From: a virus
Taxonomy: Duplodnaviria; Caudoviricetes
Length of the DNA: 64,000 nucleotides
Virus record (IMG/VR): IMGVR_UViG_3300037067_008637
Coordinates: 28,041-92,040 of that record
Strand: one strand, 5' to 3'
Made by a program: the position numbers and the translations under genes. Shown in pieces: positions 4,603 to 60,234 of this stretch; position 1 is the stretch's first letter; every line of letters starts with the position of its first letter. The notes beneath the pieces are model-generated. The model saw only the letters and a program-made list of their open reading frames with translations, was not told the origin of the DNA and searched no databases.

Positions 4603-5148
4603 TCATTTAGAAGAATCAAGGACGGTGATGTCCGTTTCTACTAAATTGTCGATTGCCGATTGGACGAACTTTTGATCATCAGGCAATTCCTTTGTCCAAA
4701 TTTCCTCATTGATAATATCAATACTTTTACAAAATGTTTGATCATCAAATATATCATGTTCGTTCATTGCTTGATTTTCATATAGATAAACATCTAATAA
4801 ACTGGATGATTTCAATACAATAAAGATGTTGAGTTTTCTCTCATTGTATTGGTTGGATACAATCATGACTGTATCAAAAAATGTTTTCCGAAGAAATTGT
4901 GAAAGACAATCCTCCCGATATCTACTAAAAAAGAAGACACCATCTTTTTCAAGCGGAGCAAGAATTCCGCATAATGCATCTACATTTTCATGACTCATAA
5001 TGTCTTCTAAATTGTGAAACTCATTCCACAATTTACCGAACATCGGATGATATTCAGGCGGAATTTGCTCATATATCTTATTGAAATCATCGACGGCTTC
5101 CCACGCAGGTTTAAGCTTGATATAGAATTTGTCTACTAGACAACCCAT
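4603..5148 (-). CDS. Hypothetical protein
   Basis: 181 aa ORF, AAGGAG RBS upstream. Confidence 0.6.
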   Translation of the reverse strand: MGCLVDKFYIKLKPAWEAVDDFNKIYEQIPPEYHPMFGKLWNEFHNLEDIMSHENVDALCGILAPLEKDGVFFFSRYREDCLSQFLRKTFFDTVMIVSNQYNERKLNIFIVLKSSSLLDVYLYENQAMNEHDIFDDQTFCKSIDIINEEIWTKELPDDQKFVQSAIDNLVETDITVLDSSK

Positions 5149-5197
5149 TGTAAATACTCCTTACTGGTTGTTATTGTCAACAATCGATTTGCCCCAA

Positions 5198-5548
5198 TTA
5201 GGACGATATATCATGTTGTTTTTCCCATCTCCAAGCTTCAATTGGGTTTATTGATTTACTTTCAATGTCTGTTAGTGTTAGATTTAGGAGGGTACCTTTA
5301 ACTGGATCATCCATATATAGTTTGTGTGCCTTTATTATTTTACCGGCATAATAGCCATTAACAAATTCAAACAATTGAAGTATACAGATAATTGCAATCA
5401 AATCAAAGAACACATTTAAACCAAAGGAGAATCGAGACATACTACTTACAGTGTCTATGATGATTGCATCACCAACAAGCCATGAAGCAAATATGATTAT
5501 ACACTGCTGATAGAAGCATGTTTTATATTTTCTCCTCAGTATTTTCAT
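5198..5548 (-). CDS. Hypothetical membrane protein
   Basis: Two hydrophobic segments; overlaps the upstream gene. Confidence 0.55.
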   Translation of the reverse strand: MKILRRKYKTCFYQQCIIIFASWLVGDAIIIDTVSSMSRFSFGLNVFFDLIAIICILQLFEFVNGYYAGKIIKAHKLYMDDPVKGTLLNLTLTDIESKSINPIEAWRWEKQHDISS

Positions 5549-5780
5549 TCATGATGCCCTCCAACAATTTCAATTCAAAATGATTAAGTCCTTGAAGATC
5601 ATCAATACTGTATTCCGGAAATTTCATTTCTAATTGGACCAAATGATGTCTAGTCCATTCATTCATATCGTTTTCATATTGGTTTCTGATCAGTGCATCA
5701 TCCCTCTCATTCACTTTCTTTCGTATGAAAAATATTGATCCAATGATCAGAACCAAAGCAATAACAACAACCAGACTCAT
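5523..5780 (-). CDS. Small single-pass membrane protein
   Basis: N-terminal hydrophobic stretch; ATGA overlap with Gat-QueC stop. Confidence 0.55.
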   Translation of the reverse strand: MSLVVVIALVLIIGSIFFIRKKVNERDDALIRNQYENDMNEWTRHHLVQLEMKFPEYSIDDLQGLNHFELKLLEGIMNENTEEKI

Positions 5781-8773
5781 TTCCCAATCCTTTTTCTCAA
5801 GATTTCTTTATTCTTCTCTGGAATTTCAAGTCGGTTTATGATATTGAGAATGTCTAGAGTTTTAACATCCAAAGAAGGAGGTTCATACGCTACATAATTA
5901 CTATCATCTACAACATAATATGTCCTTCCATCTTCCAATCCAGCCATTTTACAGGACCAATAACTCAGCAAACCACTACCGCATGCAGGCTTTCCATCTT
6001 TGGAGCAATTAGCAGGAACAGATACACAACCACATACTTTACCATCGAGATTCTTTAATTCCTGCTGAATCATCATAGGTCGATCACATGATACTAAGAA
6101 TTTTTCAAGAGGCTTTAGAAATCCAAGCTGATTGAGAAGATGATATTGTTCTGTCTTTAGAATGTTACATAAACCATATAGGGGTTTGATGTGTAATCCA
6201 GCAATACTAAACTTAAAGAACTTTATTGCTGCATCTACAAACCGTTCGCAATTGTCCGGATATGAATTGTGGGTTAACAATTTATTAACAAAGAAATTAT
6301 TATTTGGTTCACAATAATAATTTATCATTTCCTGTTCACCATTAATAATCTCAATTCTCTCCAAATTCCATCCGTTTTGAAGGGAATATAAAAAATTAGT
6401 CACTCTAGATACAATCAGATTGGGATCATCTGTCTCAAGAATTGCCAAGTGATCCCACCCCATTTTTTTATATAATTGATGTCTGTTTTCAATTTCTTCT
6501 AAGGTGTGAAAATATCCAATTCCTCCATAGTATTCAACAATCTTTTTTTGTTCAATATTTATAAAATCCGGATTCATATGTTTCCCGCTACTAGTTATCC
6601 AGATTTGTCCATCTCCTACAAATCTAAGAGGAAGAGAATGAGATTCAAATAGTAAAATCAATTCTTTCTCTTTTTTATTGGGGCTTTCACATCCACAAAT
6701 TGATGGATTTATTTTTCCTTCCGCAATCATTTTTAATGTGGCTTGTCTACATTTTTCTCTTCCTTCTGGAGTTTGATTCCAATGAATACCTCCGTTAGCA
6801 ATCAGTCTTTCCTTATAAACCTGTTTCATTTTTTCGGAAAGAATTTGTTTTACATTTTCTCCTTCTTCTGAACTCCAAAAAATAGATAAACCATTTAGAA
6901 TTCGTCTTCTATATTCTTCGTCCTTCCAACATTTTTTAGATGAGATTTTTCTGTTTTCAGTATCTCCAGTTTGATGAGTTTTTCCACACCAACACGGAAT
7001 TGTATTACTACGAATATGTCCAAACATTGGATTTTTATCACCAAGAAACGCTTTCCTTATTTTTTCTTTAATTTCAGGAAGCATTTTCTTTCCAGTTCTC
7101 CACGAGGACAGTTTTTGTCTGGTTTCGGCAGACACAGAATGTCCCATTCTACATTTAGATCTTTTTTCAAAATCATATCCAGGAAACGCATTTCCTCTTT
7201 TAATGTTATCTTTCAGTTTACACTCTTTAATAGAATAGCACACATCACCAACAAATAATGCGTTCGCCTCCACCCAATTCTTTCCTTTTATAAAAAATGG
7301 ATGAGTACCTGAAACAAAAAGGATTTTTTCACTTTGTATGCATCCAGAATTATATGTGAAAGTCAATTTGTAAGTGTCTTGGTGATGATTATTAAACTTC
7401 TCCTTTATAATGCTTTTTTCCAATAATCCCTTGTCGATATTGAAAGACATTATTTCATCCCCAACATTTAAATCGTTCGGAAGGACTTCTTTTCCATCAT
7501 ATCTTAAAATCCTGTTGTTAATATGATTTACAATACATCCAGATTCTGTTAATTGAAGAAACCCCCCGGTAAGGTAAACGTCGTCGTATTGATTTGTCAT
7601 TATTAGAGATTCTGCTAAAGCACCCATATGTACAAGCATTAAATGATTACGGAAAGTAGTCCACGCGGCAGTCGTCTTCAATCCTTCTTCCGTTCCGGTT
7701 ATGATCTTTGCCTTAGGATCTGTCAGCATTCCAAAATCCAGTTTGGACATTGCGTCGCTAATATCAAATTCTCTTAACTCTATTCCAAGAGCCTTAGTAA
7801 CGTGCCCAATAGCCGCTCTTTCACAATCCTGTCCTCTGTGTCCATATTTAAAGTGAACAGCAATCGGATTCATTTCTGCTGCCTTCAATGTTGCTAGTGT
7901 TGTAGAACTATCCAATCCTCCGGAAGCTGCAACAAGGACACATTCTCTCTTCGGTTTTGTTTTATCTTTCTTGTACACATCATACGTCGACGTAATGTAT
8001 CTTGGTTCAAAGCTACTACCAGACACCATTCCACTATCCAAGTCAATACTAGTAATAGAATATTCCGGTACTCTATGAGCATAATAATCTTCCCAGAGAG
8101 CCATTGTATTCTTTTCTATCTTTTGTCCTTTAAGTAAAGATATGGTTTCCCAAATGGATTCTTCTGTAGATGCTGCAAAGAATCCCCAACCTCTCAAATA
8201 CCCGCAGTACAAAGGTGAATGGGTACAAACTAAGTACATGCAATTCTTCTGAGTATCTACTAAAACAAATGCGAAGCCACCAGAAAGATAGTTCATAGTA
8301 TCATTCATGTTTCGTCCGAACATAAGATAAGCGTGGATAATTGCTTCGCTATCAATGTCCGTTTGATATTCATATTCAAAACCAGATTCTTTTAATTCTT
8401 TCTGAATAATGGATGATACTGCACCATTGTGTACTAAATACAACCCATGCTCCCTGTTACATATTGGTTGGACATTTCTCTCTACGTTACTTACACCGCA
8501 TTCGGTTTCGGGAGCGGCTCTTGCATTGGATAGAATAACATCTCCTTTTTGAAAAACATCCATAGGATAAGACGGATGCGGCAAATTATGCAATATTGTG
8601 GTACATTCAGTTACATCACTTGTTTTGTAGCACACTCCGGGCTGGTGCTGCCCTCTAATAAGGACAGCACCAAACCCATCGGTACCACGTTTCAATGATT
8701 GAAGCCATGCTGATTTGATCACATGTTTAGAAATCGATGCTTCTCTCATGTAAAATGCGGTAATTCCACACAT
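5777..8773 (-). CDS. Class II glutamine amidotransferase-QueC fusion (Gat-QueC-like), intein-containing
   Basis: N-terminal MCGI nucleophile, RGTDG, HNG, TDIDSE (GATase II); ASGGLDS PP-loop, FKYGHR, FRN and SG/SYPD (QueC). Confidence 0.85.
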   Translation of the reverse strand: MCGITAFYMREASISKHVIKSAWLQSLKRGTDGFGAVLIRGQHQPGVCYKTSDVTECTTILHNLPHPSYPMDVFQKGDVILSNARAAPETECGVSNVERNVQPICNREHGLYLVHNGAVSSIIQKELKESGFEYEYQTDIDSEAIIHAYLMFGRNMNDTMNYLSGGFAFVLVDTQKNCMYLVCTHSPLYCGYLRGWGFFAASTEESIWETISLLKGQKIEKNTMALWEDYYAHRVPEYSITSIDLDSGMVSGSSFEPRYITSTYDVYKKDKTKPKRECVLVAASGGLDSSTTLATLKAAEMNPIAVHFKYGHRGQDCERAAIGHVTKALGIELREFDISDAMSKLDFGMLTDPKAKIITGTEEGLKTTAAWTTFRNHLMLVHMGALAESLIMTNQYDDVYLTGGFLQLTESGCIVNHINNRILRYDGKEVLPNDLNVGDEIMSFNIDKGLLEKSIIKEKFNNHHQDTYKLTFTYNSGCIQSEKILFVSGTHPFFIKGKNWVEANALFVGDVCYSIKECKLKDNIKRGNAFPGYDFEKRSKCRMGHSVSAETRQKLSSWRTGKKMLPEIKEKIRKAFLGDKNPMFGHIRSNTIPCWCGKTHQTGDTENRKISSKKCWKDEEYRRRILNGLSIFWSSEEGENVKQILSEKMKQVYKERLIANGGIHWNQTPEGREKCRQATLKMIAEGKINPSICGCESPNKKEKELILLFESHSLPLRFVGDGQIWITSSGKHMNPDFINIEQKKIVEYYGGIGYFHTLEEIENRHQLYKKMGWDHLAILETDDPNLIVSRVTNFLYSLQNGWNLERIEIINGEQEMINYYCEPNNNFFVNKLLTHNSYPDNCERFVDAAIKFFKFSIAGLHIKPLYGLCNILKTEQYHLLNQLGFLKPLEKFLVSCDRPMMIQQELKNLDGKVCGCVSVPANCSKDGKPACGSGLLSYWSCKMAGLEDGRTYYVVDDSNYVAYEPPSLDVKTLDILNIINRLEIPEKNKEILRKRIGK
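6266..7537 (-). mobile_element. Intein (424 aa) with NUMOD3-like motifs and a Vsr/DUF559-like endonuclease
   Basis: Begins at Cys (SG|CIVNH); block B SGTHPF; ends FFVNKLLTHN|S. Removal restores LTESGSYPD. Internal HSVSAETRQKLS/NPMFG motifs and PDF...IVEYYG..YFH. Confidence 0.85.
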
Positions 8774-9729
8774 TAATCATCCTCCAGTCTTTCGCCATCC
8801 TCAAATTGTCCTAAAGAAATTCCACAATCATCAGATTCAAGTTCACATCCTAATTCTCTTGCACCAATATTGAAATCAAACTGATCATCATCTTCCTCTT
8901 GTACAAACTCTTCTTCTTCCTCATATTCATCATCCGCATCTAATACTCTTCCTGTTTGTCGCTTACCGTTAAGGTGTTTGAAGATAGATTGTCTTTTAGG
9001 AGAACGCTCACGCTCACGCGTATATCCGCCGGATAACTCCATATGAGGATCAATTGAACCATTACACTGTCCCATCATAGCATATCGACTAATTAAATCC
9101 ATTTCCTCTTGAGAATCAACCCATCCGAACTGATTTGAAAATGCATATCTTTCTCCCCAAGATCCTCGAATGGGCTGCATTGTTCTTTCCGTAATTTTGT
9201 TTGATCCTACAATGTCAGTAGTTGAAAGCAATCCTTCATCCGCTGGTGTAAGCTTCAATCTAGCAAAGAAACCATAATTTCCAACAGGTAAAGTAGCAAT
9301 TGCCTTTACAATACTTCTATCTGTCCACAACAATGAAAATCTAAAATTAGCATTGATGTATCTCTCATCTGTTCCCGAGAAATTAGCGCATCCCGCAGGA
9401 TGTCTATGCAATACTGTATTAAACTGTAAACCGGGATCTTCTTTGTAATCAATATGTGCTGTAGAAACTTCTTGCTGCGGAATATAATATTCTTCCTCAA
9501 TTACAAAAGCTTCTGCATCTGCGTTCCAATTTGTCTTACAAAATATTGAAAACTCCGAAGTTTTGAATACATCATTTAGTCCATTCATGACTTTTCGGAT
9601 GAATGATGGAACAACGATTTTTAGTTCGTGCTTAATTACCAACGAGTTGGTAATGATTGTGTCCTTTCCATCTTTGGTTACTGTTGCCTTACCGCCTTTG
9701 ATTTCTTCTCCAGTATCTAGATCTTGCAT
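8773..9729 (-). CDS. JAB/MPN+ metalloprotease with long acidic tail
   Basis: Upstream EF, IPQQEVS and LHRHP....FSGTD JAMM motif; stop overlaps Gat-QueC ATG. Confidence 0.8.
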   Translation of the reverse strand: MQDLDTGEEIKGGKATVTKDGKDTIITNSLVIKHELKIVVPSFIRKVMNGLNDVFKTSEFSIFCKTNWNADAEAFVIEEEYYIPQQEVSTAHIDYKEDPGLQFNTVLHRHPAGCANFSGTDERYINANFRFSLLWTDRSIVKAIATLPVGNYGFFARLKLTPADEGLLSTTDIVGSNKITERTMQPIRGSWGERYAFSNQFGWVDSQEEMDLISRYAMMGQCNGSIDPHMELSGGYTRERERSPKRQSIFKHLNGKRQTGRVLDADDEYEEEEEFVQEEDDDQFDFNIGARELGCELESDDCGISLGQFEDGERLEDD

Positions 9730-10673
9730 CAGTCTAACTCCACATTTTCGTTGGTATTTGCCACTGGTAAATGTTTTTCAACTATGTTCAAAAAGTCTTG
9801 TTTTAGTATATCATCTGTGATTGTCTTTGCGCATTTATCTCCATCGTTTGTCATACGATCCAAAATGACACCTTTAAAGATGTATTCAAGAATATCCTCA
9901 ACATTAAAGGTAAGAGGATTATCAAGTATCCAACGATATTTACTTGGTTCAGATTGATATCTTTTTATATTGATTGCTCCAACTAATACAAGAAGAGCAG
10001 CCATTGATGCGGGAATGATATGAGACGGAGTAATTGTGTATCCCCCTCTCCCCATTACAGGATGATCCATTGGATTGAAATCAATCGTGATGCTTGAGCC
10101 ATTGTATGCAGCACGAATTATATAGATTTCTTTTTTGAATATTTTGTCAAGAAGATCATAATCATTGTAAAAATTATCTCGACAATCAATTACCAAAACA
10201 TCCTCGTTTGGGAGAAATGGATGGTGAACAGTGTGATACGTTTCACTTCCAATACCAAATCTCTCAGCAAACCTTGCATCAAAATACTGATTTAAAGGAA
10301 CAACTGTGAGTAAAGGATTTGACGTACAAAGCATACTTGTTAATGCAGATACTTTCAAATTTCCCACAGTTGAAATATCAAATGGCGTTCTATTGAGATT
10401 GGATATTTCAATCACATCTGGATCAACCAATATCAAATACTTCACTGCCTGTATACCAGCTATAAATGTTGCAACCCATGCACCAATTCCTCCGCATCCT
10501 AATATCATTACCTGCTCACACATTCTATTGGTACAACTAGATAGAACTGTTTGCACGTCATTGGCATCATCCGCATGATTTCTAGAAAACATTTCGTCAG
10601 ATATAGTACCTGCATTTTCATACGTATATGAATCCAATGACAATGTAATAAGACTGTTATTGTTCGCGTCCAT
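9729..10673 (-). CDS. ThiF/MoeB/E1-like adenylyltransferase
   Basis: ILGCGGIG, VDPDVIEISNLNR, VGNLKV, IDCRD motifs; TGATG overlap with the JAB start. Confidence 0.9.
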   Translation of the reverse strand: MDANNNSLITLSLDSYTYENAGTISDEMFSRNHADDANDVQTVLSSCTNRMCEQVMILGCGGIGAWVATFIAGIQAVKYLILVDPDVIEISNLNRTPFDISTVGNLKVSALTSMLCTSNPLLTVVPLNQYFDARFAERFGIGSETYHTVHHPFLPNEDVLVIDCRDNFYNDYDLLDKIFKKEIYIIRAAYNGSSITIDFNPMDHPVMGRGGYTITPSHIIPASMAALLVLVGAINIKRYQSEPSKYRWILDNPLTFNVEDILEYIFKGVILDRMTNDGDKCAKTITDDILKQDFLNIVEKHLPVANTNENVELD

Positions 10674-10707
10674 GTTTCAACCCTTCTTTGTGATCTACTG
10701 GAATTTT

Positions 10708-12159
10708 CTAATCTAATTCTACCCAATCTCTTCCAGTTTCTTTTGTAATGTTTCGTTTAGTATGATCCGCTTCAAATTTTCGAAGAGCATTCTTATATTG
10801 TGGACCTAATTGTTTAGGAGTAAAATCATTATTCAATCCCTTGTAGGAAGAATCAAAATTGATAATTTCTAATACTTCTTCAATCTGTCTAAAGAAATAT
10901 TCGATTACCTCAACAGAAATGTTTTGAGAATCCGATGTTGTGATTGTGTTCCATCTGGAGGTAAGATCATATCCTAAACATACACGGTGATCACTTCTAG
11001 ACACATTTGGATGATCTCCTTCACAATGAACTATGATTTCTCTTCCTGAAAATAACTTTGGATCTATAATCAATTTATCAACATGATATTTTCTGAATGC
11101 ATCTTCCAATATATAAAGAACACCATTTTGATAGCATTTTTCTGGAATGATTTTTACCTTTTTTACCCACACTTTTCCATAGTTTTTTTCATCCTTCAAA
11201 GAGAAACCACATTTTGCAATTCTGGAAAATACAGACATTCCTAATTGCATTCCTTGATTAAATGCATCTTTTTTCAAGCTATCAGAAGCATTTATAATTT
11301 GAATAAGAGCCTTCTTATAAAGGGTTCCTTGGTTCATAAGAAGGGAATAATGTATGCCACTAATATCTATTCCGCCTCGATTAAAATCTGCAACATCTCC
11401 CGCACACAACGATCTGAGTTGCTTATTTATCTCATTGATGATTGTTTTATTATCTAATAATGTCATTCTTCCTTCTGCCGCATTTCGCTCGATTTTTAGA
11501 AGGATGGATGTAATTAGATCTTTTCCCAATTCTGCTGGATTTTGTCCTTCATATACATCTTTTTGGAGAGATTGAAAATCAAAGATTTTCTTAATAATAG
11601 AACAGGTTTTCATTGCTCCAATCTGGTACCACAACGTAGCAATGGCCATTTCGTGAAAATATAAAATCCCATTAATCCCAATAAATGCAATCGGAACTTT
11701 AATATCATCCCCAGCAGTAAATACCGCAAACAACCATTTATTCAGGGCATTAGTAACTCTAAAAGACATCTGGGATGCCATGTTTTTGTACAACAAGAAT
11801 CTACTATTACTGGGAGCATCTACATACATTTCAACCGCTGTATACATATCATAACAATGCAGATAGTTTAGAGTTGAAAGTGTCGGAAGTTGCACAGACA
11901 CGATGCTCCGAAATATAGATGGTTGTCCTTGCACGTTTTGTGCATAATCATATAATGCTGTATCTATATTGCTGTATGTTGTAACAACAAATCTGCTTGA
12001 ATTTATTGGCAAACAGTTTGCAATAGCTTCAATTCTCAATGAAACAGCGTCATAATCATCATCCGAAAATTTTTGTAAATTTATAGTCCCTTCATTTTTC
12101 GAAGCATTCTTTTTTTGTTGATAAACAGATTGATCGATTTTAACGGACGTGATGCTCAT
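10708..12159 (-). CDS. Protein with C-terminal E2 (UBC)-like domain
   Basis: HPNVSRSDHRVCLG matches the E2 HPN..(I/V)CL signature (Cys codon 10978-10980); start set at the ATG 12159 behind AGGAG. Confidence 0.6.
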   Translation of the reverse strand: MSITSVKIDQSVYQQKKNASKNEGTINLQKFSDDDYDAVSLRIEAIANCLPINSSRFVVTTYSNIDTALYDYAQNVQGQPSIFRSIVSVQLPTLSTLNYLHCYDMYTAVEMYVDAPSNSRFLLYKNMASQMSFRVTNALNKWLFAVFTAGDDIKVPIAFIGINGILYFHEMAIATLWYQIGAMKTCSIIKKIFDFQSLQKDVYEGQNPAELGKDLITSILLKIERNAAEGRMTLLDNKTIINEINKQLRSLCAGDVADFNRGGIDISGIHYSLLMNQGTLYKKALIQIINASDSLKKDAFNQGMQLGMSVFSRIAKCGFSLKDEKNYGKVWVKKVKIIPEKCYQNGVLYILEDAFRKYHVDKLIIDPKLFSGREIIVHCEGDHPNVSRSDHRVCLGYDLTSRWNTITTSDSQNISVEVIEYFFRQIEEVLEIINFDSSYKGLNNDFTPKQLGPQYKNALRKFEADHTKRNITKETGRDWVELD

Positions 12160-12181
12160 TTTCATCTCCTGTTTTAATGGC

Positions 12182-12217
12182 AAGGGAGAGGACCCTGCTA
12201 TTAGGATCCTCTCCCTT
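12182..12217 (-). terminator. Strong intergenic hairpin (no U-tract)
   Basis: AAGGGAGAGGATCCT-AATAGC-AGGGTCCTCTCCCTT; 15 bp including one G-U pair on the minus strand. Confidence 0.55.
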
Positions 12218-12228
12218 AGTGACTTTGT

Positions 12229-12798
12229 TTATTGGCCGGCTTTGTTGTGTCTCTCAACCGCAACGAAGATCAGCACGGGATTGCAGTTAACGTTTTCAGG
12301 ATCTACAATTCGACCTACCGACAAATCGCGAAGTACGCAATTTTCAATCTGCGTAAGAGCACAATAGCTCTGAATCGCTCCCAAAATGTTTTCCGGAGAT
12401 TTGATGAGAATGTGCTTCTCTCCATTGATTACCAAAATGCGTTGAGTGCGAGTGATGTTGTGAACACTTGCATTCGGAAACACAACTCGGAAACCCTTGG
12501 ACGTTTCGGCAATATCATACCCACGACAATCAACCGGAATTTCAACAGAATTCGGATCAAATTCGGACACCGAATACTTCTCATGATTGGCAAGCACGTT
12601 TTCATCAAGAAGAGCATACCGCGTATACCGATCATCATTATTCTCTTCAATGGCACCAACTTCCACCAACGCTTCCAAAATTTCACCAAGCTTCTTCGTC
12701 TTCTTGGCATAACTCAACACCTGAGCAATCGCATTGCCCGTCAGCATTTCATCATTGTTAACAATTACATCGAGTACTTCTTGCTTCGTCAAAGACAT
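12229..12798 (-). CDS. Putative ubiquitin-like protein (winged-helix-like N-terminus, beta-grasp-like C-terminus ending KAG-Q)
   Basis: First gene of the E2/E1/JAB operon; last ~70 aa show a beta-beta-alpha-beta-beta-beta pattern; GGAGG RBS. Confidence 0.55.
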   Translation of the reverse strand: MSLTKQEVLDVIVNNDEMLTGNAIAQVLSYAKKTKKLGEILEALVEVGAIEENNDDRYTRYALLDENVLANHEKYSVSEFDPNSVEIPVDCRGYDIAETSKGFRVVFPNASVHNITRTQRILVINGEKHILIKSPENILGAIQSYCALTQIENCVLRDLSVGRIVDPENVNCNPVLIFVAVERHNKAGQ

Positions 12799-12872: not shown

Positions 12873-14084
12873 CAAGAGAAGCAGGAAAACCTCCTCCTTT
12901 AGGGGGAGGATGAACTGCTCTGAACTAGAAAATTGAGAACAAGTGAATAGGATAAAACTATATATAAGTTTATTCTTTTAACGATTGGAGAGATTATATG
13001 AAATTAATGAAGAGTTATACTGCTAGAATTGAAGGCAATGCCTGTAAATCTAGCAATCTGCTCTTCATTCTTTCCAAATTAAAAGAAATGTCCCAATACG
13101 TTTTCGAAGGCGGACCAGATTATTGGTTCGACTTCATGGCCATGTATCATGATTGTCGTAAACGTTATCCAGAATTAAACTCGAAAATACTGCAGAATTT
13201 TCTGCAACTTTATCGTCCTATTAAAGGACGAAAATTGCCCAAATCTGCAATTAAACCGATTATTGTTCTAGATCAAAATTTCAATTTGAAATTCAATGAA
13301 TGCTCTAAATATTCGAACTGGTGGTTACGATTCGGACGCCGAAATTATCCCTTGAGAGGAAAGAGAATCCTCTCTCGTATCAAGGACATATCAGGCGTTA
13401 CAGAATGCCGTATCTTTGTTCGAAACAATAAAGCATATTGCAAATTGACATATGCTGAAGAGGCTCCAGAAATAACATCAACTGATAATCCAGTTGGAAT
13501 CGATCTCAACACCAAGCGAATTGTTTCCTCTTCAAATAAAGTATACCATATAAAACGATGGTTTCATCGTAAGATGGAGAATAAGAAGAATCGTGGAAAG
13601 AACAATATTGATCAATTCACGAAACATACCATTCACCAGATCACGAATCAGATTATCGCGGATCTCGTCCGAACAGAATCAAAGGTTTTGATCCTGGAGG
13701 ACCTTAAGGATCTTCGAAAGTCTTCATCGAGAAAGAATGGAACTTCAAAAGGAAAAGAACTCAATTATCGAATAAATAATTGTTTTCCAACCGCGATGTT
13801 CCGACAAATTCTTTCTTATAAATGTTTAGAAAACGGAATCAAATTGGAATTCGTAGATCCTGCATACACCTCGAAAGCTTGCTCGCGATGCGGCTCGCAA
13901 GAGACGCTTCGAGAGACTCAATCGAGGTTTGAATGCACGTCTTGTGGATTTCAATTGGACGCCGATCTAAACGCTTCTAGAAACATTCTATTCCGGTATA
14001 CCGGAGAGAATGGCTCGCCAGTCGATCCGAGCCGGTTTTCCCAAGGGAAAGCCAAGCTGGTCCCTTTAGGGGCCAGTAGTTGAC
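12873..14084 (+). mobile_element. tnpB-only IS200/IS605-family element
   Basis: CC-TTTA-GG hairpins at both ends (12890-12909 and 14057-14076); right end AGTAGTTGAC; left boundary approximate. Confidence 0.65.
12998..14083 (+). CDS. tnpB: TnpB RNA-guided nuclease
   Basis: RuvC GIDLN, ILEDL, DADLNASRNI; TSKACSRCG/CTSCG zinc ribbon. Confidence 0.9.
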   Translation: MKLMKSYTARIEGNACKSSNLLFILSKLKEMSQYVFEGGPDYWFDFMAMYHDCRKRYPELNSKILQNFLQLYRPIKGRKLPKSAIKPIIVLDQNFNLKFNECSKYSNWWLRFGRRNYPLRGKRILSRIKDISGVTECRIFVRNNKAYCKLTYAEEAPEITSTDNPVGIDLNTKRIVSSSNKVYHIKRWFHRKMENKKNRGKNNIDQFTKHTIHQITNQIIADLVRTESKVLILEDLKDLRKSSSRKNGTSKGKELNYRINNCFPTAMFRQILSYKCLENGIKLEFVDPAYTSKACSRCGSQETLRETQSRFECTSCGFQLDADLNASRNILFRYTGENGSPVDPSRFSQGKAKLVPLGASS

Positions 14085-14096
14085 AGAATAGAGGGA

Positions 14097-15107
14097 TTAG
14101 TGTCTGGATGCAAATATCGTTGTCATCTGTTTTTGGATATAAGAGCGCATGTTCATATGGCAGCGCACATCATAATTCAAGTCCAAGCAATACGAGGCGA
14201 TCAATATTGCTACCAAGAAATTACGATGTTCAGGAGGAAGATTTTCCCAATAGGAATTGAAAATACCCTTCTCCGTTTTCTTTAGGCATTTCGCCAACTT
14301 ATCTGCATGAATATCAACATTGTGAGTAATACCCTTTAGAATGGTAGTACTTTCATTGTAGTGCTGTTGAATCTGAGTAAGATCCGCGGATACTGCACCA
14401 AGACTATGTGTAGTATGCGTGAACGTATGATTGCGATTCGTCAATGTGAAATAATCACGGAATCCAATACGATCGTTCCCGCTGTTTTGAAGTTTGATGT
14501 GAACAGCGAAATCAATACGAATCGACGCAGTTCCGTTGTATGTATTGGTAACACAAACATCTACATTAGAATTTGCATTACTTAATACATCAGAGCTTAC
14601 ACCACTGATAATTTCAAAGGCGAGCTTAGCTTCATCATCTCCTAATACATCAATCGGTGTAGTCGTTTTACCTGTTGCAGAAAGAATAAAAGGTGCACCA
14701 TGTACAATCGGTTCACCATCAAATTCCACCTGACGAGCCAATTCATCATAGAAAGGATTGACTTTAGCAACCACATATTCCTTCGAAAGCAATCCGCCTT
14801 TCAAAACTTGCCAAACAGGTTCTGGCTGCATTTCATCTTTATAGAATCCTGCAAATGCACCAGTCTGTTGCGCATCAGGCGTATAGATTTCTTCGAACCG
14901 ATAGGTATGCCGTCCAAATTCTGTAAACTCCACAGGAATATGAAGGCCGTTTTCCCCTATCTCATTCGCAAGAGGTTCCACCCAAGAAATCGTAGGAGCA
15001 GGAAGGGTGTTTTCTTGAAGCGTTTCAGGAACTTCTTCGAGCGTTAGGATTGTAGCCGTGTTTCCATCATTTACCAAAGCATCAAGGTTATCATTAGGTT
15101 CTGTCAT
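14097..15107 (-). CDS. Hypothetical protein, possibly DUF932-like
   Basis: 336 aa; VTNTYNGTAS resembles the NSHDG motif of DUF932 (weak). Confidence 0.45.
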   Translation of the reverse strand: MTEPNDNLDALVNDGNTATILTLEEVPETLQENTLPAPTISWVEPLANEIGENGLHIPVEFTEFGRHTYRFEEIYTPDAQQTGAFAGFYKDEMQPEPVWQVLKGGLLSKEYVVAKVNPFYDELARQVEFDGEPIVHGAPFILSATGKTTTPIDVLGDDEAKLAFEIISGVSSDVLSNANSNVDVCVTNTYNGTASIRIDFAVHIKLQNSGNDRIGFRDYFTLTNRNHTFTHTTHSLGAVSADLTQIQQHYNESTTILKGITHNVDIHADKLAKCLKKTEKGIFNSYWENLPPEHRNFLVAILIASYCLDLNYDVRCHMNMRSYIQKQMTTIFASRH

Positions 15108-22364: not shown

Positions 22365-23099
22365 TTAATACCCAACTATATTCAGCAACCACACTGGTTT
22401 TTGATCATTGTCATATACTCTCTTTATATCATATCTTCCATTGAAAACTTTGTCAACATTTGTTAGAATCATTGATTCCAAAGGAAGCCATTCTTCCGCA
22501 CCTATTTTTCGCCAAGAAATATTTCTAATTTCAGATTGAGTTGCTGTTAATTGAATTGGAAGTTTTTCTCTAGAAATATGTTCGGCCGCAGATGCTTCTG
22601 CTTTAAGAATTTCAAGTACGGAAAGATATTCAGATGCAATATTGCAAAAATCTGAAATTTCCCCTTGGTTTAAATCACAAGTAGCAAACGCGGTATCGGT
22701 TTCCCACACAGAAATCCTACCAATGATTACACCAAGATACTCCAATGATTTACAAAACTTCTTCAATAGAAAATAACACATGTTTTCTGCAGTCGGATTA
22801 TCGGACACTGCATAAGCTCTATTACCTTTTAACCAACCCAACTTTACAACATCCAGATCCGATTGATTGTATATTAGAGCATGATCCCAATTTTCATCAA
22901 TCCATGTTCCAAGAGTTTTCTTAATTACACTGAAATCAACTAGACGTCCTACTGAATCTAATTTCGGTCCAAATGCAGTTACTTCAACCACATAGGAGTG
23001 GCCATGAATACTACTGCATCTTCCTTCATGCCCAACCAAACGATGGGCACACTCAAATTTAAGTTGTTTTGTACAAGATATTGTCATATTAGACATCAT
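22365..23099 (-). CDS. queD: 6-carboxytetrahydropterin synthase QueD with C-terminal extension
   Basis: FECAHRL, C..IHGHSY, VDFS, WDHA, NPTAEN, WET. Confidence 0.9.
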   Translation of the reverse strand: MMSNMTISCTKQLKFECAHRLVGHEGRCSSIHGHSYVVEVTAFGPKLDSVGRLVDFSVIKKTLGTWIDENWDHALIYNQSDLDVVKLGWLKGNRAYAVSDNPTAENMCYFLLKKFCKSLEYLGVIIGRISVWETDTAFATCDLNQGEISDFCNIASEYLSVLEILKAEASAAEHISREKLPIQLTATQSEIRNISWRKIGAEEWLPLESMILTNVDKVFNGRYDIKRVYDNDQKPVWLLNIVGY

Positions 23100-30803: not shown

Positions 30804-32114
30804 GTGAACTACTGGTCCCTAAAGGAACCAGCTTCCTGCGTTGCCGCAATACTATCCGAAAAATCGGAATGATTCTCCAAATAGGCCTGTCCCAGGCAAA
30901 GTATGTTTTTGGCCGCATTGACATCTCTATCTTCAACATAACCGCAACTGCAACTCATAGTTCGATCAGAAAGCGGCATAGTGTGCAACTTTCCGCAATT
31001 GTTACACATTTTGCTGGTATTATATGGATTGACTTCTATGATTCGGTTGCTCTTGTATTTTAAGAACGATATCAATTGACCCAAACACGAATTTCTCAAT
31101 TCTCTATTTAATCCGGTTATTTCACTTTCTGACATTTTCTTCAATTGAAGATTTTCAATAACAATTGTATCAAATTTTTGAGAAAGGTTATAAGAAACCT
31201 TATGCAAAAAATCCGATTGTTTTCGGCTCTTTGCATCATACAATTTATTGATCGTCTTAGAAAGAAAACGCCATTTTCTTGAGTATTTTTTACATTTCTT
31301 GTCTCTCCTTGATTTCAGTTGATTGATTTGTTTATCAAAATATTTTGCATGATTTTTGTTCTTAATGATTTCACCATCAGATGTTGCAACAATATTAGTG
31401 ATACCGAGATCAATGCCAATAATTGAATTACTTGTTTCTACGGATTTCTTTTCACCCTCGGACGTGATACAAATATACCATTTATCGTCTTTCGTTGTGA
31501 TGTATAATTGTTTGATAGTTCCTTGTATTTCTCTGTGCTTAGAAATCTTAATTGATCCATATTTCGGAACTTTTACGTGATTATCCAAAATCTTGAAATG
31601 AAGTGATTGTGGATAGCAAATTCCAAAGAATTCTCTGCAGGATCTGAATCTTGGATAACCTTCTGGTTTTCCATCTTTACGAAGATCCAATTCCTCTTTG
31701 GAATTCCTAAGGAGATCATGAAATTTGTCGAAAGCTTTTTGCAATCTTAATGGAACTTGTTGCAACACCTGACTATGAATCTCCAAAAGAGATGGATCAT
31801 CTTGTTTTAATGAAACCAATTCCTGTTGCTGATCATATCTAGTAATTTCATAATCACCTGTTAGATTTCTTTGTTCTAAGAAATAATTGTACAATCGATT
31901 AAGACGATTGGCGTGAGTCCAAAGCTTCCTTATCTGATCCTGTGTAGGATAAGCTCTGAACTTATAAGTAATCATTCGTCTTTCGAAATCCTTTTTGTTT
32001 TCAATATATTCCTTTAGAATCATTATATTGTAAGTTTGTTCTGCTTATTTCAAATGGGTTTATATATGAAAATTATTCGTCACCTACTGCCTAAAGGCAG
32101 AGGATTTCTTCTTG
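30804..32114 (-). mobile_element. tnpB-only IS200/IS605-family element
   Basis: Left hairpin CTGCC-TTTA-GGCAG; right end AAGCTGGTTCCTTTAGGGACCAGTAGTTCAC; left boundary approximate. Confidence 0.65.
30809..32023 (-). CDS. tnpB: TnpB RNA-guided nuclease
   Basis: YKFRAYPT, GIDLG, VIENL, TSKMCNNCG, DRDVNAAKNI. Confidence 0.93.
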   Translation of the reverse strand: MILKEYIENKKDFERRMITYKFRAYPTQDQIRKLWTHANRLNRLYNYFLEQRNLTGDYEITRYDQQQELVSLKQDDPSLLEIHSQVLQQVPLRLQKAFDKFHDLLRNSKEELDLRKDGKPEGYPRFRSCREFFGICYPQSLHFKILDNHVKVPKYGSIKISKHREIQGTIKQLYITTKDDKWYICITSEGEKKSVETSNSIIGIDLGITNIVATSDGEIIKNKNHAKYFDKQINQLKSRRDKKCKKYSRKWRFLSKTINKLYDAKSRKQSDFLHKVSYNLSQKFDTIVIENLQLKKMSESEITGLNRELRNSCLGQLISFLKYKSNRIIEVNPYNTSKMCNNCGKLHTMPLSDRTMSCSCGYVEDRDVNAAKNILCLGQAYLENHSDFSDSIAATQEAGSFRDQ

Positions 32115-55745: not shown

Positions 55746-55830
55746 TGGAGGAAGGTGAGGGATTCGAACCCCCAAGCCCGAAGGCGTCTGCTTTCGAAGC
55801 AGATGGATTAGCCAATTATCCTAACCTTCC
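55746..55830 (-). tRNA. tRNA-Ser(CGA)
   Basis: GGAAGGT/ACCTTCC acceptor, TCTGC-TTCGAAA-GCAGA anticodon arm, long variable arm, TTCGAAT loop, encoded CCA. Confidence 0.9.
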
Positions 55831-56148
55831 GTAATCAGATTGATATCCAAATATTTTGATATTTCTTTTCTTGCTTTCTCTCGATAATCTTCAACGACGC
55901 AAACAGGACAAGTGCAAGGCAAATTAACACAATCTCCACAATGCTTAGGAGCAGTTTCCAGTCCTGCTACCCAACCATCATATGCACGTTTAGCATCTTC
56001 AAATGTTGTAAAATCTCTAGTTGCATCCTGTGGATTTCCTTCAATTTCAAACGATGCATCCACAAGAATGTCGTCCAGATATACTAACACTGCGGCAATT
56101 TCATCAAGAGACGATGGATCTTTAAAATTATTCATTTCTTTTCCTATC

Positions 56149-56484
56149 TTAGTTGAAAAAGGTTCTCTCGAACATTTGTGGTTTTGGCAGATTGTTTTCT
56201 GCGGCACACTTATCCAACAAGCTCATGTCCAATTCTGATGGATCAGAACATTTATAATCTCTCCAATCTTCATCCTCATTCATATTGTGATCAATATCAG
56301 TCTCAACAGTTCCAACTCCAATAATATCATCGTCATCCCCACCGTACGTCTCAACGAATGGTAGATTTGCTTTTCTAAAAATCTCATAGTATCTACCATA
56401 TTCTTCCCCATCATCAAACGAATATCCATATATGCAAAAACTAGTAGCAGATGAATTGGATACAAACCCTTGTCTGATTTTCAT
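56149..56484 (-). CDS. NSSS-motif family protein 10
   Basis: MKIRQGFVSNSSATSF. Confidence 0.75.
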   Translation of the reverse strand: MKIRQGFVSNSSATSFCIYGYSFDDGEEYGRYYEIFRKANLPFVETYGGDDDDIIGVGTVETDIDHNMNEDEDWRDYKCSDPSELDMSLLDKCAAENNLPKPQMFERTFFN

Positions 56485-56726
56485 TATATTTTTTTCCTTA
56501 TAGCTGGATCCCAATGATCATATACTGGAAGAGAAACTTTATGACAATCACAGTTTCTCCAATCTAATGGAAGATGTATTCCAGGACCTCGTTCCATATA
56601 CATATTATGTTTTTCTAACCAAGATTTTCCAAAAGAGGCCCTATTGACTTGTTGATCGGTTAAGATAAATTCACCTTTTTCATTAAACAACATATTGGAA
56701 CCTTTCATTGAAAGATTAATTTTGAA

Positions 56727-56809
56727 TGGCGGAAGAGACAGGACTTGAACCTGCAAGGCCGAAGCCGGTAGAATAGCAATCTACTGCCTTACCATTAGAC
56801 TACTCTTCC
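56727..56809 (-). tRNA. tRNA-Ser(GCT)
   Basis: GGAAGAG/CTCTTCC, GTAGA-TTGCTAT-TCTAC, variable arm, GCCA end. Confidence 0.9.
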
Positions 56810-56815
56810 ATTTCT

Positions 56816-57172
56816 TCACAATATGAATCTTGGGATTTCTTTTACAGAATAATCCGTTAGATTCAAAACATCTATCAATTCATTGAACACATCCATTGGT
56901 TTAGTATTACCACAAGTGAATATGTCCATAGCAATTAATCCTAAATCTGCATAACTATGAGCAGAACAATGACTCTCATCCAACAATATTACTAGAGCAA
57001 AACCTGGGGGACTATTATGCCCCAAATGATATCTTGCTTGAGACAATACTGTAGCCCCCGCGTGTTCAACCGCAGCAACTAACACTTTCAAAAATCTTCC
57101 GTCATCTAAACATATATCTTCTGGAACATTTTTGAAATCTACAATCAAATGGGTACCTTTTGCCTTTTCCAA
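56816..57172 (-). CDS. speD: S-adenosylmethionine decarboxylase proenzyme
   Basis: GTHLIVD, LLDESHCSAHSY self-cleavage motif, DIFTCG. Confidence 0.9.
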   Translation of the reverse strand: MEKAKGTHLIVDFKNVPEDICLDDGRFLKVLVAAVEHAGATVLSQARYHLGHNSPPGFALVILLDESHCSAHSYADLGLIAMDIFTCGNTKPMDVFNELIDVLNLTDYSVKEIPRFIL

Positions 57173-57513
57173 CTCATATAACCTCCCAGGACAGTCATGT
57201 CCGATTTTTGATTGACAAAGCTAGTACGCATATTTTGCTTTGGCAGATCAGATCTTGTTAGTTGAGCATTTCGCTCGTATGTATTATTTGTTCAGATCTT
57301 CAATTGATCATTTCTTGTTACATTTTTTGACTTTCCAGGCATCTACAATCAAACCTTTTCCCAATTCAAAAAAGGTATCTCCACCAGCAGCTTGTATGAT
57401 GCTCTTGACTTTCTCTTTGGTGAAGTCAACAAATACATTCTTTTTGGGTTTGACTGTATCCCCGACTTTGATTGATTTGTCATAGGTTTGCATGATGTCA
57501 CCTTTTTTGAGTT

Positions 57514-57588
57514 TGGCGCTTCGTAGGGGAATTGAACCCCTGTTTATGGATCGACAATCCATTGTTCTTGCCACTGAACTAACGAAGC
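57514..57588 (-). tRNA. tRNA-Asp(GTC)
   Basis: GCTTCGT/ACGAAGC, ATGGA-TTGTCGA-TCCAT, GCCA end. Confidence 0.9.
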
Positions 57589-57591
57589 AAT

Positions 57592-57678
57592 TGGTACCGG
57601 AGAAGAGATTTGAACTCTCACTACCCTACTGGGTATCTGCTTTTGAGACAGACGTGTCAGCCATTGCACCACTCCGGC
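57592..57678 (-). tRNA. tRNA-Leu(CAA)
   Basis: GCCGGAG/CTCCGGT, TCTGT-CTCAAAA-GCAGA, variable arm, ACCA end. Confidence 0.9.
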
Positions 57679-57884
57679 AATGTTGAAAAACCATTGCAAT
57701 CAAAGGATTGACTGGATGATTTGGCGGATGATCCTTGATTGCTGCTTGCAATATTTTCGCAATTTCTTCTTTCGTCACTTTGTTTTTCCTCTTGATGCTG
57801 GTTTGAAATGATGAGCATGAAGGATCTCACGAATCGTTCCTGATTGTTACTTACAGATGGGATTCGAACCCATAGTTACCAAGT

Positions 57885-59003
57885 TCATAAAAGAACATAT
57901 AATTGCTCTACAGGAACTTTGGCTTGGCAACCGGCACCATAGGGTCCGGTAAGAAATCGATTCAGAATATTTCTTGCGGCATTAACATCCGCATTGGCAG
58001 TATAACCACAAGACTGACAAAGAAATATCCCTTGTGACTTTCGGTTTCTTTTATCGATTAGGTTGCAGACTGGGCAAGTTATGGATGTATTAAAGGGGCT
58101 GACGCTTGCGTAAGAAACACGGTTTCTTTCGCAAGCGAACTTCAACCTCTGCATCCAATAAGCTTGATTCCAATTACCGATAACGGATCTCATAGACTTG
58201 TGAAGTCTCTTAGATTTCTTGGTATTTTTCGAAATGCCTTTGAGATTCTCAAAGACAATTAATGAGCCATGCTTTACGACTTCTTTGGCAGTCAAGGAAA
58301 TGTAGGACTTTAAGTCGACTCTGGCTCGTTTTTGACCCTTAGAACCGTTCTTGCACCGTTTGATTCTCTGAATCTTGGATTCCAATTCAGTTCCTAAATG
58401 TTCACCAGTTGAAAGAGCCGCCAGAGATTTGATTCCAGTATCGATTCCGATGCAGGAATCAAATGGTAACTTTGGACCGGTTTCTATCTCGAATGAAAAC
58501 TGAACATGATTTCTTAGAATTTGGACCGTTGTACAGAGTTTCCCTTCTTCCATTAATTGATTAAAATGTTTATGTCGTCTGATTGGAATGTCAAATATGA
58601 TCTGGTTTCCGATAGATTGAAGGTGTAACCAATTGTCGAACTCTTTAGTGTTTTTTGGTAATTCAAAGAGAGCAATTGATTTTGAGAGAATCATTCGATT
58701 TCCGAAATGGGCCGGTTTAATTGGCTCCTCTTCGGCTTCCTCCGCTTGCGCTTTGGCAGCAGAAATCATATCAATTGCTTCTCGGGCCGAATTTTGAATC
58801 ATTCTTTGTGAAAACCAAGTGGACTCTTTCACCAAATTTAGAACGCCCTTTAGCAGATCTATCTTTTTAGGAGTATTCTCCCAAAACAGATCGATAAAAA
58901 GATTGACAACTTTAGTATATTCTGCCCGAATAACTTCCAGTTGTTCTCTTTTTTCTGAAGTCATATACTTCAGATTGCATTTGGATGATCTAATGATTTT
59001 CAT
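57885..59003 (-). CDS. tnpB: TnpB RNA-guided nuclease (third lineage)
   Basis: GIDTG, VFENL, TSITCPVC/CQSCG, NADVNAARNI; no CCTTTAGG end hairpins. Confidence 0.9.
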   Translation of the reverse strand: MKIIRSSKCNLKYMTSEKREQLEVIRAEYTKVVNLFIDLFWENTPKKIDLLKGVLNLVKESTWFSQRMIQNSAREAIDMISAAKAQAEEAEEEPIKPAHFGNRMILSKSIALFELPKNTKEFDNWLHLQSIGNQIIFDIPIRRHKHFNQLMEEGKLCTTVQILRNHVQFSFEIETGPKLPFDSCIGIDTGIKSLAALSTGEHLGTELESKIQRIKRCKNGSKGQKRARVDLKSYISLTAKEVVKHGSLIVFENLKGISKNTKKSKRLHKSMRSVIGNWNQAYWMQRLKFACERNRVSYASVSPFNTSITCPVCNLIDKRNRKSQGIFLCQSCGYTANADVNAARNILNRFLTGPYGAGCQAKVPVEQLYVLL

Positions 59004-59107
59004 AACGAATATTCAACTTCTCCCTTGGGTTATAATTTATTCTCCTAGGATTTTTAGAATTTCATACATTCAATTATGAAAGGATTGTTTCTATTCAATA
59101 CAATGAT

Positions 59108-59484
59108 TGGCTTACGGGCCGGGAGTCGAACCCACCACACCGTCGTGTGTCCACCGAGGATATTCTCCGCTACACCAAATTGTATTCTATCCACATTCTC
59201 TCATCAAAAAATCTATAATCGTCTCTCCGATTTGTCACGCCTTCAGAACTGTCTCTTCTCCCCGACAATTCATCTCGAATATCTCAGTCTTCCCCTCACG
59301 AGAAAAACCGCATGATATCGTAGTTTGTCTATTCACATTTAGTCGGCGTTCACTTGTTGCTTTTCCAAATAGGCCTGGATCTTATAGTCAACCTGCTTCC
59401 TATAAGAGTTCCGATTCTTGTTTTATCTGCATTGAGCAGAGGCGCCTTGCTGCGCCACAGACAGGCGGAATAAGATCTTATCCT
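59108..59484 (-). ncRNA. Candidate structured RNA with tRNA-like 3' end
   Basis: ~375 nt without a minus-strand ORF of 60 aa or more; ends GGGTTCGACTCCCGGCCCGTAAGCCA; several hairpins. Confidence 0.4.
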
Positions 59485-59862
59485 CTACTCAGTTGGATTC
59501 GTTCCTAAACCAACTAGTACAGGAATCATCGGAAATAGTTCATCCTTTACCATATCGAGCAGATAAGGAATAATGCAATCATCTGTTTCTTCATCATTAT
59601 TTAGTTCATCCAAAGATGAATATTCCTCTAAGACAATCCCGAGAAACTTAGCCAAAGCATCATCATCCGACTCAATTGCTTCAATCTGCTGCAAAATTCC
59701 CTTATAGGCACAAACTGCATATTTCGCAACTCCCCATCTGAGCATATTTTCGACTTGCTCGTCCGGTTCAAAATTGAGAACATCTGCATCCTGATCAAGC
59801 AATGCTTGTTGGCTTTCGATCAGTCCATTAATTGCATCAATTAGTTGCTGCTTCTTAACCAT
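59485..59862 (-). CDS. Acidic hypothetical protein
   Basis: AGGAG RBS. Confidence 0.5.
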   Translation of the reverse strand: MVKKQQLIDAINGLIESQQALLDQDADVLNFEPDEQVENMLRWGVAKYAVCAYKGILQQIEAIESDDDALAKFLGIVLEEYSSLDELNNDEETDDCIIPYLLDMVKDELFPMIPVLVGLGTNPTE

Positions 59863-59897
59863 TTTAGATTTCTCCTGTAAGTGTACTAGTTAAATAA

Positions 59898-59974
59898 TGG
59901 AGCGGATAGTGGGATTCGAACCCACGAAAAAACTAGAATGGAAATCTAGCGCCTTACCACTGGGCCATATCCGC
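59898..59974 (-). tRNA. tRNA-Gly(TCC)
   Basis: GCGGATA/TATCCGC, CTAGA-TTTCCAT-TCTAG, TCCA end. Confidence 0.9.
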
Positions 59975-60012
59975 CATGAATTTACAATTTATTCACATTC
60001 GGCTTGAAACAA

Positions 60013-60234
60013 TCACTTTCCGTGTCGAATTACTTCTCTTAGTTCTTCAATATCTCGTTTACATTCTTTTCTATATCTTAACCTTTTCAATCTATTTTCA
60101 TCTACTTCATCAATAGGTTCTGAATGTTTGTTATGTTTTATTCCGAATGTGCCTACACAAATACCAGAAATGAAAACCAATAACACAATGAATATTCCTA
60201 TTCCAGCAATACTAACTATCATAGATACCTCCAT
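60013..60234 (-). CDS. Small membrane protein
   Basis: N-terminal hydrophobic helix. Confidence 0.5.
   Translation of the reverse strand: MEVSMIVSIAGIGIFIVLLVFISGICVGTFGIKHNKHSEPIDEVDENRLKRLRYRKECKRDIEELREVIRHGK

Follow-up and report, generated by a model that had tools for sequence, protein, structure and literature searches.

A predicted four-gene ubiquitin-like tagging cassette in a large uncultured phage and its relatives

The locus and its four genes

This report concerns a set of four genes in a stretch of 64,000 nucleotides (positions 28,041 to 92,040 of the IMG/VR virus record IMGVR_UViG_3300037067_008637; Duplodnaviria, Caudoviricetes), which in its full length is called the window below. 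The window comes from a large phage that has not been cultured. Its genes are almost all on the minus strand, it has seven tRNA genes, and the encoded proteins include one similar to the beta' subunit of multisubunit RNA polymerase (RNAP), SbcC, SbcD, topoisomerase II, a helicase, a NAD ligase, QueD, RtcB and three TnpB proteins. At 8773-12798 (minus strand) four co-oriented consecutive genes encode a tag precursor, an E2-like protein, a ThiF-type E1 and a JAMM/JAB peptidase. The E1 stop and the JAB start overlap in TGATG, and the JAB stop overlaps the start of the next gene, Gat-QueC. We believe that the four genes constitute a complete ubiquitin-like tagging kit carried by this phage and its relatives, which is supported by sequence motifs and predicted structures. 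The original prediction, made from the letters of the DNA, had described four consecutive co-oriented genes with the TGATG overlap, and every item of it is present in the sequence at the coordinates that it gave. It had also claimed that the virus owns the machinery, and it does: the window has multisubunit RNAP, SbcCD, topoisomerase II, seven tRNAs and a nearly one-strand gene layout.

The features of the cassette are given below, with the basis of each assignment in brackets (ORF, open reading frame; AF2, AlphaFold2; UBC, ubiquitin-conjugating).

12229-12798, minus strand: tag precursor, 189 aa (ORF, AF2 model and conservation of the C-terminal motif)
12604-12798, minus strand: winged-helix domain, tag residues 1-65 (AF2 model, VIA, Foldseek)
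12235-12447, minus strand: beta-grasp-like domain, tag residues 118-188 (order of secondary structure in the AF2 model)
12232-12234, minus strand: codon of Gln189, the predicted removable residue after H-N-K-A-G188 (sequence)
12181-12218, minus strand: 16-bp hairpin in the gap between the tag and E2 genes (folding energy against shuffles)
10708-12159, minus strand: E2-like conjugating enzyme, 483 aa from the ATG at 12159 (motifs, PDB profile, AF2 model)
10813-11271, minus strand: UBC-like domain of the E2-like protein (AF2 model alignment)
11005-11013, minus strand: HPN motif (sequence)
10978-10980, minus strand: predicted catalytic Cys codon of the E2-like protein, residue 402 in ORF numbering and 394 from the ATG (sequence)
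9729-10673, minus strand: minimal ThiF/MoeB-type E1, 314 aa (Pfam ThiF)
8773-9729, minus strand: JAMM/JAB metallopeptidase, 318 aa (HRH-x7-SGTD motif; weak Pfam Prok-JAB)
9553-9555, minus strand: predicted catalytic Glu59 of JAB (sequence conservation)
9367-9408, minus strand: H108-x-H110-x7-S118-x2-D121 motif of JAB (sequence conservation)

The tag precursor is the protein that had been described as ending in ...ERHNKAGQ, and it is found at 12229-12798 with 189 aa. Its AF2 model has a predicted local distance difference test (pLDDT) score of 80 overall and of 80-90 in the C-terminal domain. The N-terminal domain resembles winged-helix proteins (VIA Z 9.4 over 68 aligned residues, root-mean-square deviation 2.7; Foldseek probability about 1.0), and the tag profile, compared with the PDB, gave nothing but weak winged-helix matches (RPA32C, Z-alpha, Hop2-type). 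Between this domain and the C-terminal one lie a low-complexity linker of variable length and then three short strands at 95-116. In the C-terminal domain, DSSP assigns strands to 120-124 and 128-132, a helix to 135-149, strands to 154-158 and 163-164, a 3-10 helix to 167-169 and a strand to 176-183, after which the tail begins. That residues 120-183 share the order (b-b-a-b-b-3/10-b) and the approximate spacing of the ubiquitin elements is supported by this model. The beta-grasp assignment rests on topology without a structural match, because the winged-helix domain occupied both fold-search lists (VIA and Foldseek); an ESM Atlas structure search with the C-terminal domain gave nothing usable, all matches having a template modelling (TM) score below 0.5.

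One close relative of the tag was found initially; the genes upstream in the loci of E2 relatives were added, and the profile search then gave 19. All of 24 relatives have N-K-A near the C-terminus, then G or A, and then a tail of 0-18 residues (none, Q, QK, F, LTV, K, 14 aa or 18 aa). The residue after N-K-A is Gly in the subgroup of the window and Ala in the sister subgroup, and H184 is near-invariant, being replaced by Y in L014 and by V in L013 (these and similar labels are our handles for the loci compared). An invariant end with a disposable variable tail is the pattern of a precursor trimmed by a peptidase, i.e., of a processed precursor of a ubiquitin-like protein (Ubl). The proposal that JAB trims the terminal Gln to expose KAG is backed by the NKA(G/A) end and variable tails of these 24 sequences, and the same ends, together with the ubiquitin-like order of strands and helix in a confident model, favour the reading of the tag as a Ubl. 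For CBASS, a C-terminal Gly or Ala is documented as the conjugated end for E1/E2 (PMC10097602).

The tag and E2 genes are separated by 45 bases, in which there is a perfect 16-bp hairpin (minimum free energy -28.8 kcal/mol, z -4.69), and none of 200 shuffles was as stable. Hairpins of unrelated sequence occupy the same gap in each of the seven other loci (12-16 paired bases, z about -3.5 to -7.6), which makes eight of eight overall; as in intrinsic terminators, a T-run comes after several of them. Within the window, a z of -4 or below is reached by 3 of 18 comparable gaps. The hairpin is probably an attenuator or a partial terminator setting a high tag-to-enzyme ratio, and its conservation after the tag gene fits attenuation, with the consumable tag outnumbering the enzymes.

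The frame of the E2-like gene is open to a TTG at 12183 (10708-12183, minus strand, 491 aa). Translation most likely begins at the ATG at 12159, with an AGGAG site six bases upstream, and this gives the 483 aa that had been claimed for 10708-12159; the HPNV-x6-VCLG motif and the Cys codon at 10978-10980 are also as had been described. Comparison with Pfam, PHROGs, NCBIfam and PADLOC yielded nothing credible for this protein (the lone NCBIfam match, E 0.043 and 13.6 bits against a cutoff of 224, is spurious), and a word-indexed homologue search returned the protein itself alone. An exhaustive HMMER search gave 65 cluster representatives, five of them below 1e-30, for a family of at least this number of clusters. 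In the alignment of the 65 sequences five residues do not vary (H391, C402, G404, N442 and S445) and four hardly vary (P392, N393, E435 and D444); the consensus reads G-x-HPNVS-x4-VC-x-G ... L-x-INFDSAY. The best 60 of the 86 matches of the family profile in the PDB (E up to 10) are all ubiquitin-conjugating enzymes, the best with E 0.038, and the alignment to UBE2C spans the HPN, Cys and LL-x-x-N-x-DS segments. Pfam UQ_con is touched by two of the 65 relatives (E about 2e-4) and the Prok-E2 families are matched by none, the window protein itself having no Pfam match of any kind.

The AF2 model of the E2-like protein, for which the family alignment was the input, has pLDDT above 90 over residues 300-450. 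Residues 305-457 align by VIA to about twenty E2 structures (Z 5.0-5.6, 115-128 aligned residues), the top Foldseek match in the PDB is an E2 (probability 0.90, E 0.056), and in BFVD there are weak matches to giant-virus E2s and to unnamed viral proteins of 373-522 aa. The structural scores are modest because the model is that of a 491-residue multi-domain protein. The claim of a UBC fold finds agreement between the predicted fold, the HPN, Cys and N-x-D-S motifs and the PDB profile matches, which among the best ones are to UBC proteins only; the assignment to the UBC-type E2s is supported, although all scores are modest. The N-terminal part of about 300 aa shows no recognisable fold by VIA alignment of the model or in ESM Atlas; we presume that it is the substrate selector.

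A minor feature is shared by two of the enzymes: both the E2-like protein (10708-10722) and the E1 (9732-9746) of the window end in V-E-L-D. Most close relatives have an E2 terminus of the form W-x-E-L-(D/E), as in L003 and L011; L006 has W-I-V-L-E and L010 W-T-E-I-S. This type of end may be a shared docking motif.

The assignment of the E1 is firm, with Pfam ThiF (PF00899) matching at E 1.8e-18 and 67 bits (cutoff 28.1), in agreement with the ThiF/E1 gene of the original prediction; its nearest PDB relatives are Uba4, MoeB, MccB and ThiF. Among six relatives from independent loci the motifs GxGGIG, SNLNRT, K107 and DCRD are invariant. The Cys inside the DCRD nucleotide motif is the only invariant one, and neither a crossover-loop catalytic Cys nor CxxC zinc pairs are found in the window protein or in the six-relative alignment. 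Tyr190, Tyr212 and Ser217 are invariant as well and lie in the region expected to form the crossover loop. Judging by its motifs, the protein is a minimal adenylating enzyme with intact ATP-binding and arginine-finger motifs and without the usual thioester Cys, so that the classical E1 thioester step is unlikely. Bub operons provide a precedent for a Cys-less E1 with an invariant Tyr (PMC11601596).

In JAB, residues E59, H108, H110, S118 and D121 are invariant in seven relatives (27-37% identity). It is this complete set, Glu with H-x-H-x7-S-x2-D, that upholds the earlier identification of a JAMM protease, the Pfam score being below threshold. Prok-JAB is weakly matched by three of the seven family members, the PADLOC JAB model matches the window protein with E 5e-3, and no JAB structure was matched by the profile in the PDB. 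The acidic C-terminal tails differ between relatives, one of which has zinc ribbons.

Conservation of the cassette and comparison with known systems

A motif scan found the order Ubl-E2-E1-JAB in every fetched locus with enough flank. The four-gene loci are the window (of which L001 and L002 are near-identical copies), L011, L012 (the same phage as L009), L013, L014, L015 and L016; short contigs contain partial sets, as expected. In L017, a more distant viral contig of 45 kb, E1-E2-JAB is present, and a 97-aa protein ending in ...PKKG is encoded about 0.9 kb upstream of E1. Identity to the window proteins across the loci is 20-37% for the tag, 27-33% for E2, 26-42% for E1 and 31-43% for JAB; for the comparison genes it is 48-56% (Gat-QueC) and 63% (RNAP beta'). 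The occurrence of four genes together in independent metagenomic and viral contigs at 20-43% identity is more than chance. Moreover, the flanking genes vary between the loci while the order of the four genes stays, which makes the four genes the unit; in particular, SbcCD lies upstream of the cassette in the window and downstream of it in the Ala-Ala group. The contigs that bear the cassette reach 58-254 kb and carry phage replication genes, and its surroundings are in all cases DNA-metabolism modules of large phages. Within the DNA replication/recombination module of a deep clade of large phages the cassette forms a core block with conserved synteny; it is not a sporadic add-on.

Outside these loci the searches gave little. 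Among GenBank phages, blastn of the cassette and tblastn of E2 had no match, and tblastn of E1 gave generic ThiF/MoeB matches only. A close-pattern scan of representative genomes of 185,579 species found no relative, distant cellular relatives being outside the reach of such a scan. In IMG/VR, an alignment-based scan gave four loci and single-protein scans none.

The closest system in gene content is Bil (BilABCD, types I and II), the bacterial ISG15-like anti-phage operons. Both consist of four separate proteins (Ubl, E2, JAB and E1), both lack an E3, the E2 is presumed to choose the targets itself, and in both the Ubls can bear extra N-terminal domains (PMC11601603). The phage cassette differs in being virus-owned and syntenic in the replication module, in the gene order Ubl-E2-E1-JAB, in an E2 with an N-terminal extension of about 300 aa and a eukaryote-style HPN, and in a tag with a winged-helix head that ends in A-G or A-A. 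The Bil E1 has the architecture IAD-AAD-CYS (PMC11601596), whereas the phage E1 is a single domain of 314 aa without a catalytic Cys. Membership in Bil was rejected on account of this single-domain, Cys-less E1 and of the PADLOC models, which match neither the tag nor the E2.

Bub (6E/DUF6527) is similar in another respect: it has a minimal homodimer-type E1 without the crossover-loop Cys and with an invariant Tyr there, and a JAB peptidase exposes the Ubl C-terminus (PMC11601596). However, the Bub E2 uses Ser and oxyester intermediates, while the Cys of the phage E2 is invariant; the cassette is phage-encoded and has no Ubl-E2, JAB-E1 or E2-E1 fusions. With this invariant Cys as the E2 nucleophile, and with no DUF6527 protease among the called neighbour genes of the cassette loci, membership in Bub was also rejected.

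Type II CBASS (the Cap2 E1-E2 and the Cap3 JAB) shares a C-terminal Gly or Ala that is exposed and removed by JAB (PMC10097602), and the best matches of the phage E1 in the PADLOC defence library are Cap2 models, in their Rossmann part only. In the phage, E1 and E2 have a gene each, a dedicated Ubl-like protein serves as the substrate and the E1 Cys is absent; the separate genes and the lack of a CD-NTase in the cassette neighbours examined, where no effector was found either, exclude the cassette from this type. The PRTRC cassette was rejected too, as no PRTRC model (PRTRC_ThiF, PRTRC_A-F) is among the NCBIfam matches of the four proteins with E of 0.1 or below. Nor is the phage E1 a canonical one of the Uba1/Uba5/BilD/Cap2 type, since it lacks the crossover-loop Cys.

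With the UBC E2s of eukaryotes and archaea (Pfam UQ_con) the phage E2 shares the HPN, a Cys about ten residues further on and the N-x-D-S loop after the next helix; its motifs align with UBE2C and UbcH5-type enzymes, and the predicted fold gives matches at modest scores. The differences are that the window E2 is below the Pfam thresholds, that the spacing from HPN to Cys is one residue longer, that there is a large N-terminal extension, and that the phage operon has a ThiF-sized E1 and no RING E3.

No phage-encoded E1-E2-JAB-Ubl set was met with in full-text searches, in reviews of jumbo phages (PMC7824862, PMC13282480) or in a survey of ubiquitin-like systems of prokaryotes from 2006 (PMC1779556), and for the phage cassette as predicted here we found no describing paper.

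Proposed mechanism and competing explanations

We consider it quite probable, from sequence and models, that the cassette is a virus-owned, E3-independent ubiquitin-like conjugation system. JAB would cut off Gln189 and expose Gly188, which the E1 would adenylate; the Cys of E2 would then attack the tag adenylate directly or, less likely, the tag would be transferred via an oxyester on an invariant Tyr or Ser of E1, as in Bub. The N-terminal region of E2 would pick lysines on target proteins, JAB may also be able to reverse the mark, and owing to the conserved hairpin behind the tag gene the tag would outnumber the enzymes. The attachment would also deliver the winged-helix domain to the target. 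Since the cassette is a core block of the replication/recombination module, its expected action is on DNA-associated proteins of the host or the phage, not that of a mobile defence island.

Several observations weigh against this reading. The beta-grasp assignment of the tag C-domain is a matter of predicted topology only, and Ala-Ala, an unusual end for a Ubl, is found in half of the tag family. The UBC structure matches are modest (Z 5-5.6) and the sequence E-values against the PDB are 0.04-1; JAB matches Pfam Prok-JAB with E 1.2e-3 and 19.2 bits, below the cutoff of 25. Finally, a classical cascade cannot be assumed with the E1 Cys missing.

A different explanation is that the cassette is a Bil-like cargo taken from a host, serving against phages or in superinfection exclusion by tagging structural proteins of competing phages. 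The gene content is the same as that of BilABCD (PMC11601603), and the faster evolution of E2 and the tag (25-33% identity) relative to Gat-QueC and RNAP beta' (53-63%) would fit an arms race. We nevertheless find this unlikely: the differences in E1 and in the PADLOC results given above stand against it, and so do the synteny of the cassette in the replication module across a deep clade, as opposed to a sporadic occurrence, and the lack of close-pattern relatives in the genomes of the 185,579 species.

Another candidate is a sulfur-carrier pathway of the ThiS/MoaD/CysO type, in which the tag, adenylated by E1, would form a thiocarboxylate donor for a thio-modified nucleotide, tRNA or DNA base and JAB would only mature the carrier. 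Sets of Ubl, JAB and E1 have been described in sulfur assimilation (PMC1779556), the E1 is closest to MoeB, ThiF and Uba4 and has no catalytic Cys, and the cassette adjoins the PP-loop enzyme Gat-QueC, with further 7-deazaguanine genes in the window, e.g., QueD at 22365-23099. However, an E2 with the invariant HPN, Cys and N-x-D-S is always present, the tag bears a large winged-helix domain, many relatives end in Ala-Ala where known carriers end in Gly-Gly, and Gat-QueC is not next to the cassette in the Ala-Ala group. Domain searches of the neighbours, which did not cover every one of them, revealed no rhodanese or cysteine desulfurase. We hold such a pathway to be improbable.

The products of Gat-QueC (amide or amidine) are poor acyl acceptors, which weighs against the remaining explanation, a very improbable one, that the acceptor is not a protein and is instead an amine on a hypermodified 7-deazaguanine in phage DNA, a lipid or a small molecule, with a protein-DNA or metabolite adduct as the result. 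The overlap of the JAB stop with the Gat-QueC start, the proximity of the two in five loci, the nucleic-acid-binding type of domain in the tag and the non-protein targets raised for CBASS conjugation (PMC10097602) speak for it, but the link with Gat-QueC is inconstant (L012, L013, L015, L016) and the N-x-D-S loop, by which protein-modifying E2s are directed to lysine, is retained in the E2.

Returning to conjugation to proteins, a broader and more doubtful statement can be made, which we put forward as a tentative whole. A deep phage clade would use a self-contained ubiquitin-like system as a core infection function, in which the E1 passes the tag on without a thioester and the E2 is nearer to the eukaryote-type UBC than to the described prokaryotic E2 families; and the tag would covalently deliver its winged-helix domain to chromatin, replication or repair proteins of the host or the phage. 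If true, this delivery would be a new mode of viral takeover, and the phages would be a viral reservoir relevant to the spread of HPN-type E2s before or alongside eukaryotes.

Ubiquitin-like conjugation in the conflict of phages and bacteria is so far known from the host side only (CBASS, Bil and probably Bub); with a complete kit, conserved and syntenic in a phage clade, bacterial viruses too would be shown to write a ubiquitin-like mark. The system is compact, and its four proteins are open to reconstitution. Of mechanistic interest are the pairing of an E1 that lacks the Cys with a Cys-type HPN E2 of eukaryote-like character, the independence of this E2 from an E3 together with its built-in adaptor region, and a tag that has a winged-helix domain and tolerates a C-terminal Ala. 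After trypsin, modified lysines are expected to bear a diagnostic remnant, Ala-Gly or, for the sister group, Ala-Ala, which would make target discovery straightforward.

Neighbouring genes

Downstream of JAB the window has two further features of note.

5777-8773, minus strand: Gat-QueC of the 7-deazaguanine pathway, with an intein (Pfam GATase_6/7, QueC, PT-HINT, NUMOD3)
6266-7537, minus strand: intein in Gat-QueC, 424 aa, with a NUMOD3/HNH-type homing endonuclease (from Cys413 to His-Asn836, then Ser)

The Gat-QueC relatives in other loci are intein-free, with 559-573 aa against 998 aa in the window. The gene is probably co-transcribed with the cassette. It lies beside or near the cassette in L003, L008, L010, L011 and L014 and not beside it in L012, L013, L015 and L016; the idea of Gat-QueC as an obligate partner was rejected because of these last four loci. 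Gat-QueC and QueD (a PTPS protein; 22365-23099), the RNA ligase RtcB (62994-63989) and the seven tRNA genes (55746-62000) together suggest that the phage has functions in 7-deazaguanine modification and in the repair of tRNA.

The three TnpB genes (Cas12f1-like TNB) are at 12998-14083 (plus strand), 30809-32023 (minus strand) and 57885-59003 (minus strand). The first of them is the sole large plus-strand gene in the cassette area and is situated between the tag gene and a gene for a 336-aa protein (14097-15107). The counterpart of the latter immediately precedes the tag gene in L011 and L014, and for this reason the TnpB gene looks like a recent insertion.

Some other loci have additional genes near the cassette. 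In L011 an 858-aa protein with Major Vault Protein shoulder and Vault_3 domains (4869-7445) is inserted between JAB and Gat-QueC. A second short ThiF-like gene occurs a few kb downstream of the cassette in L008 (5073-5732, 219 aa) and in L009 (9423-9929, 168 aa, a weak match). In L014 a frame cut by the end of the locus (11781-12494) has two HPN motifs, the second followed by ...YYCLGD; this frame, which lies 3.6 kb downstream of the cassette, may be another E2-like gene of the HPN type. L017 contains tandem-repeat DNA at 2577-2972, which reads (MALA)n in one frame and (GDGSG)n in another.

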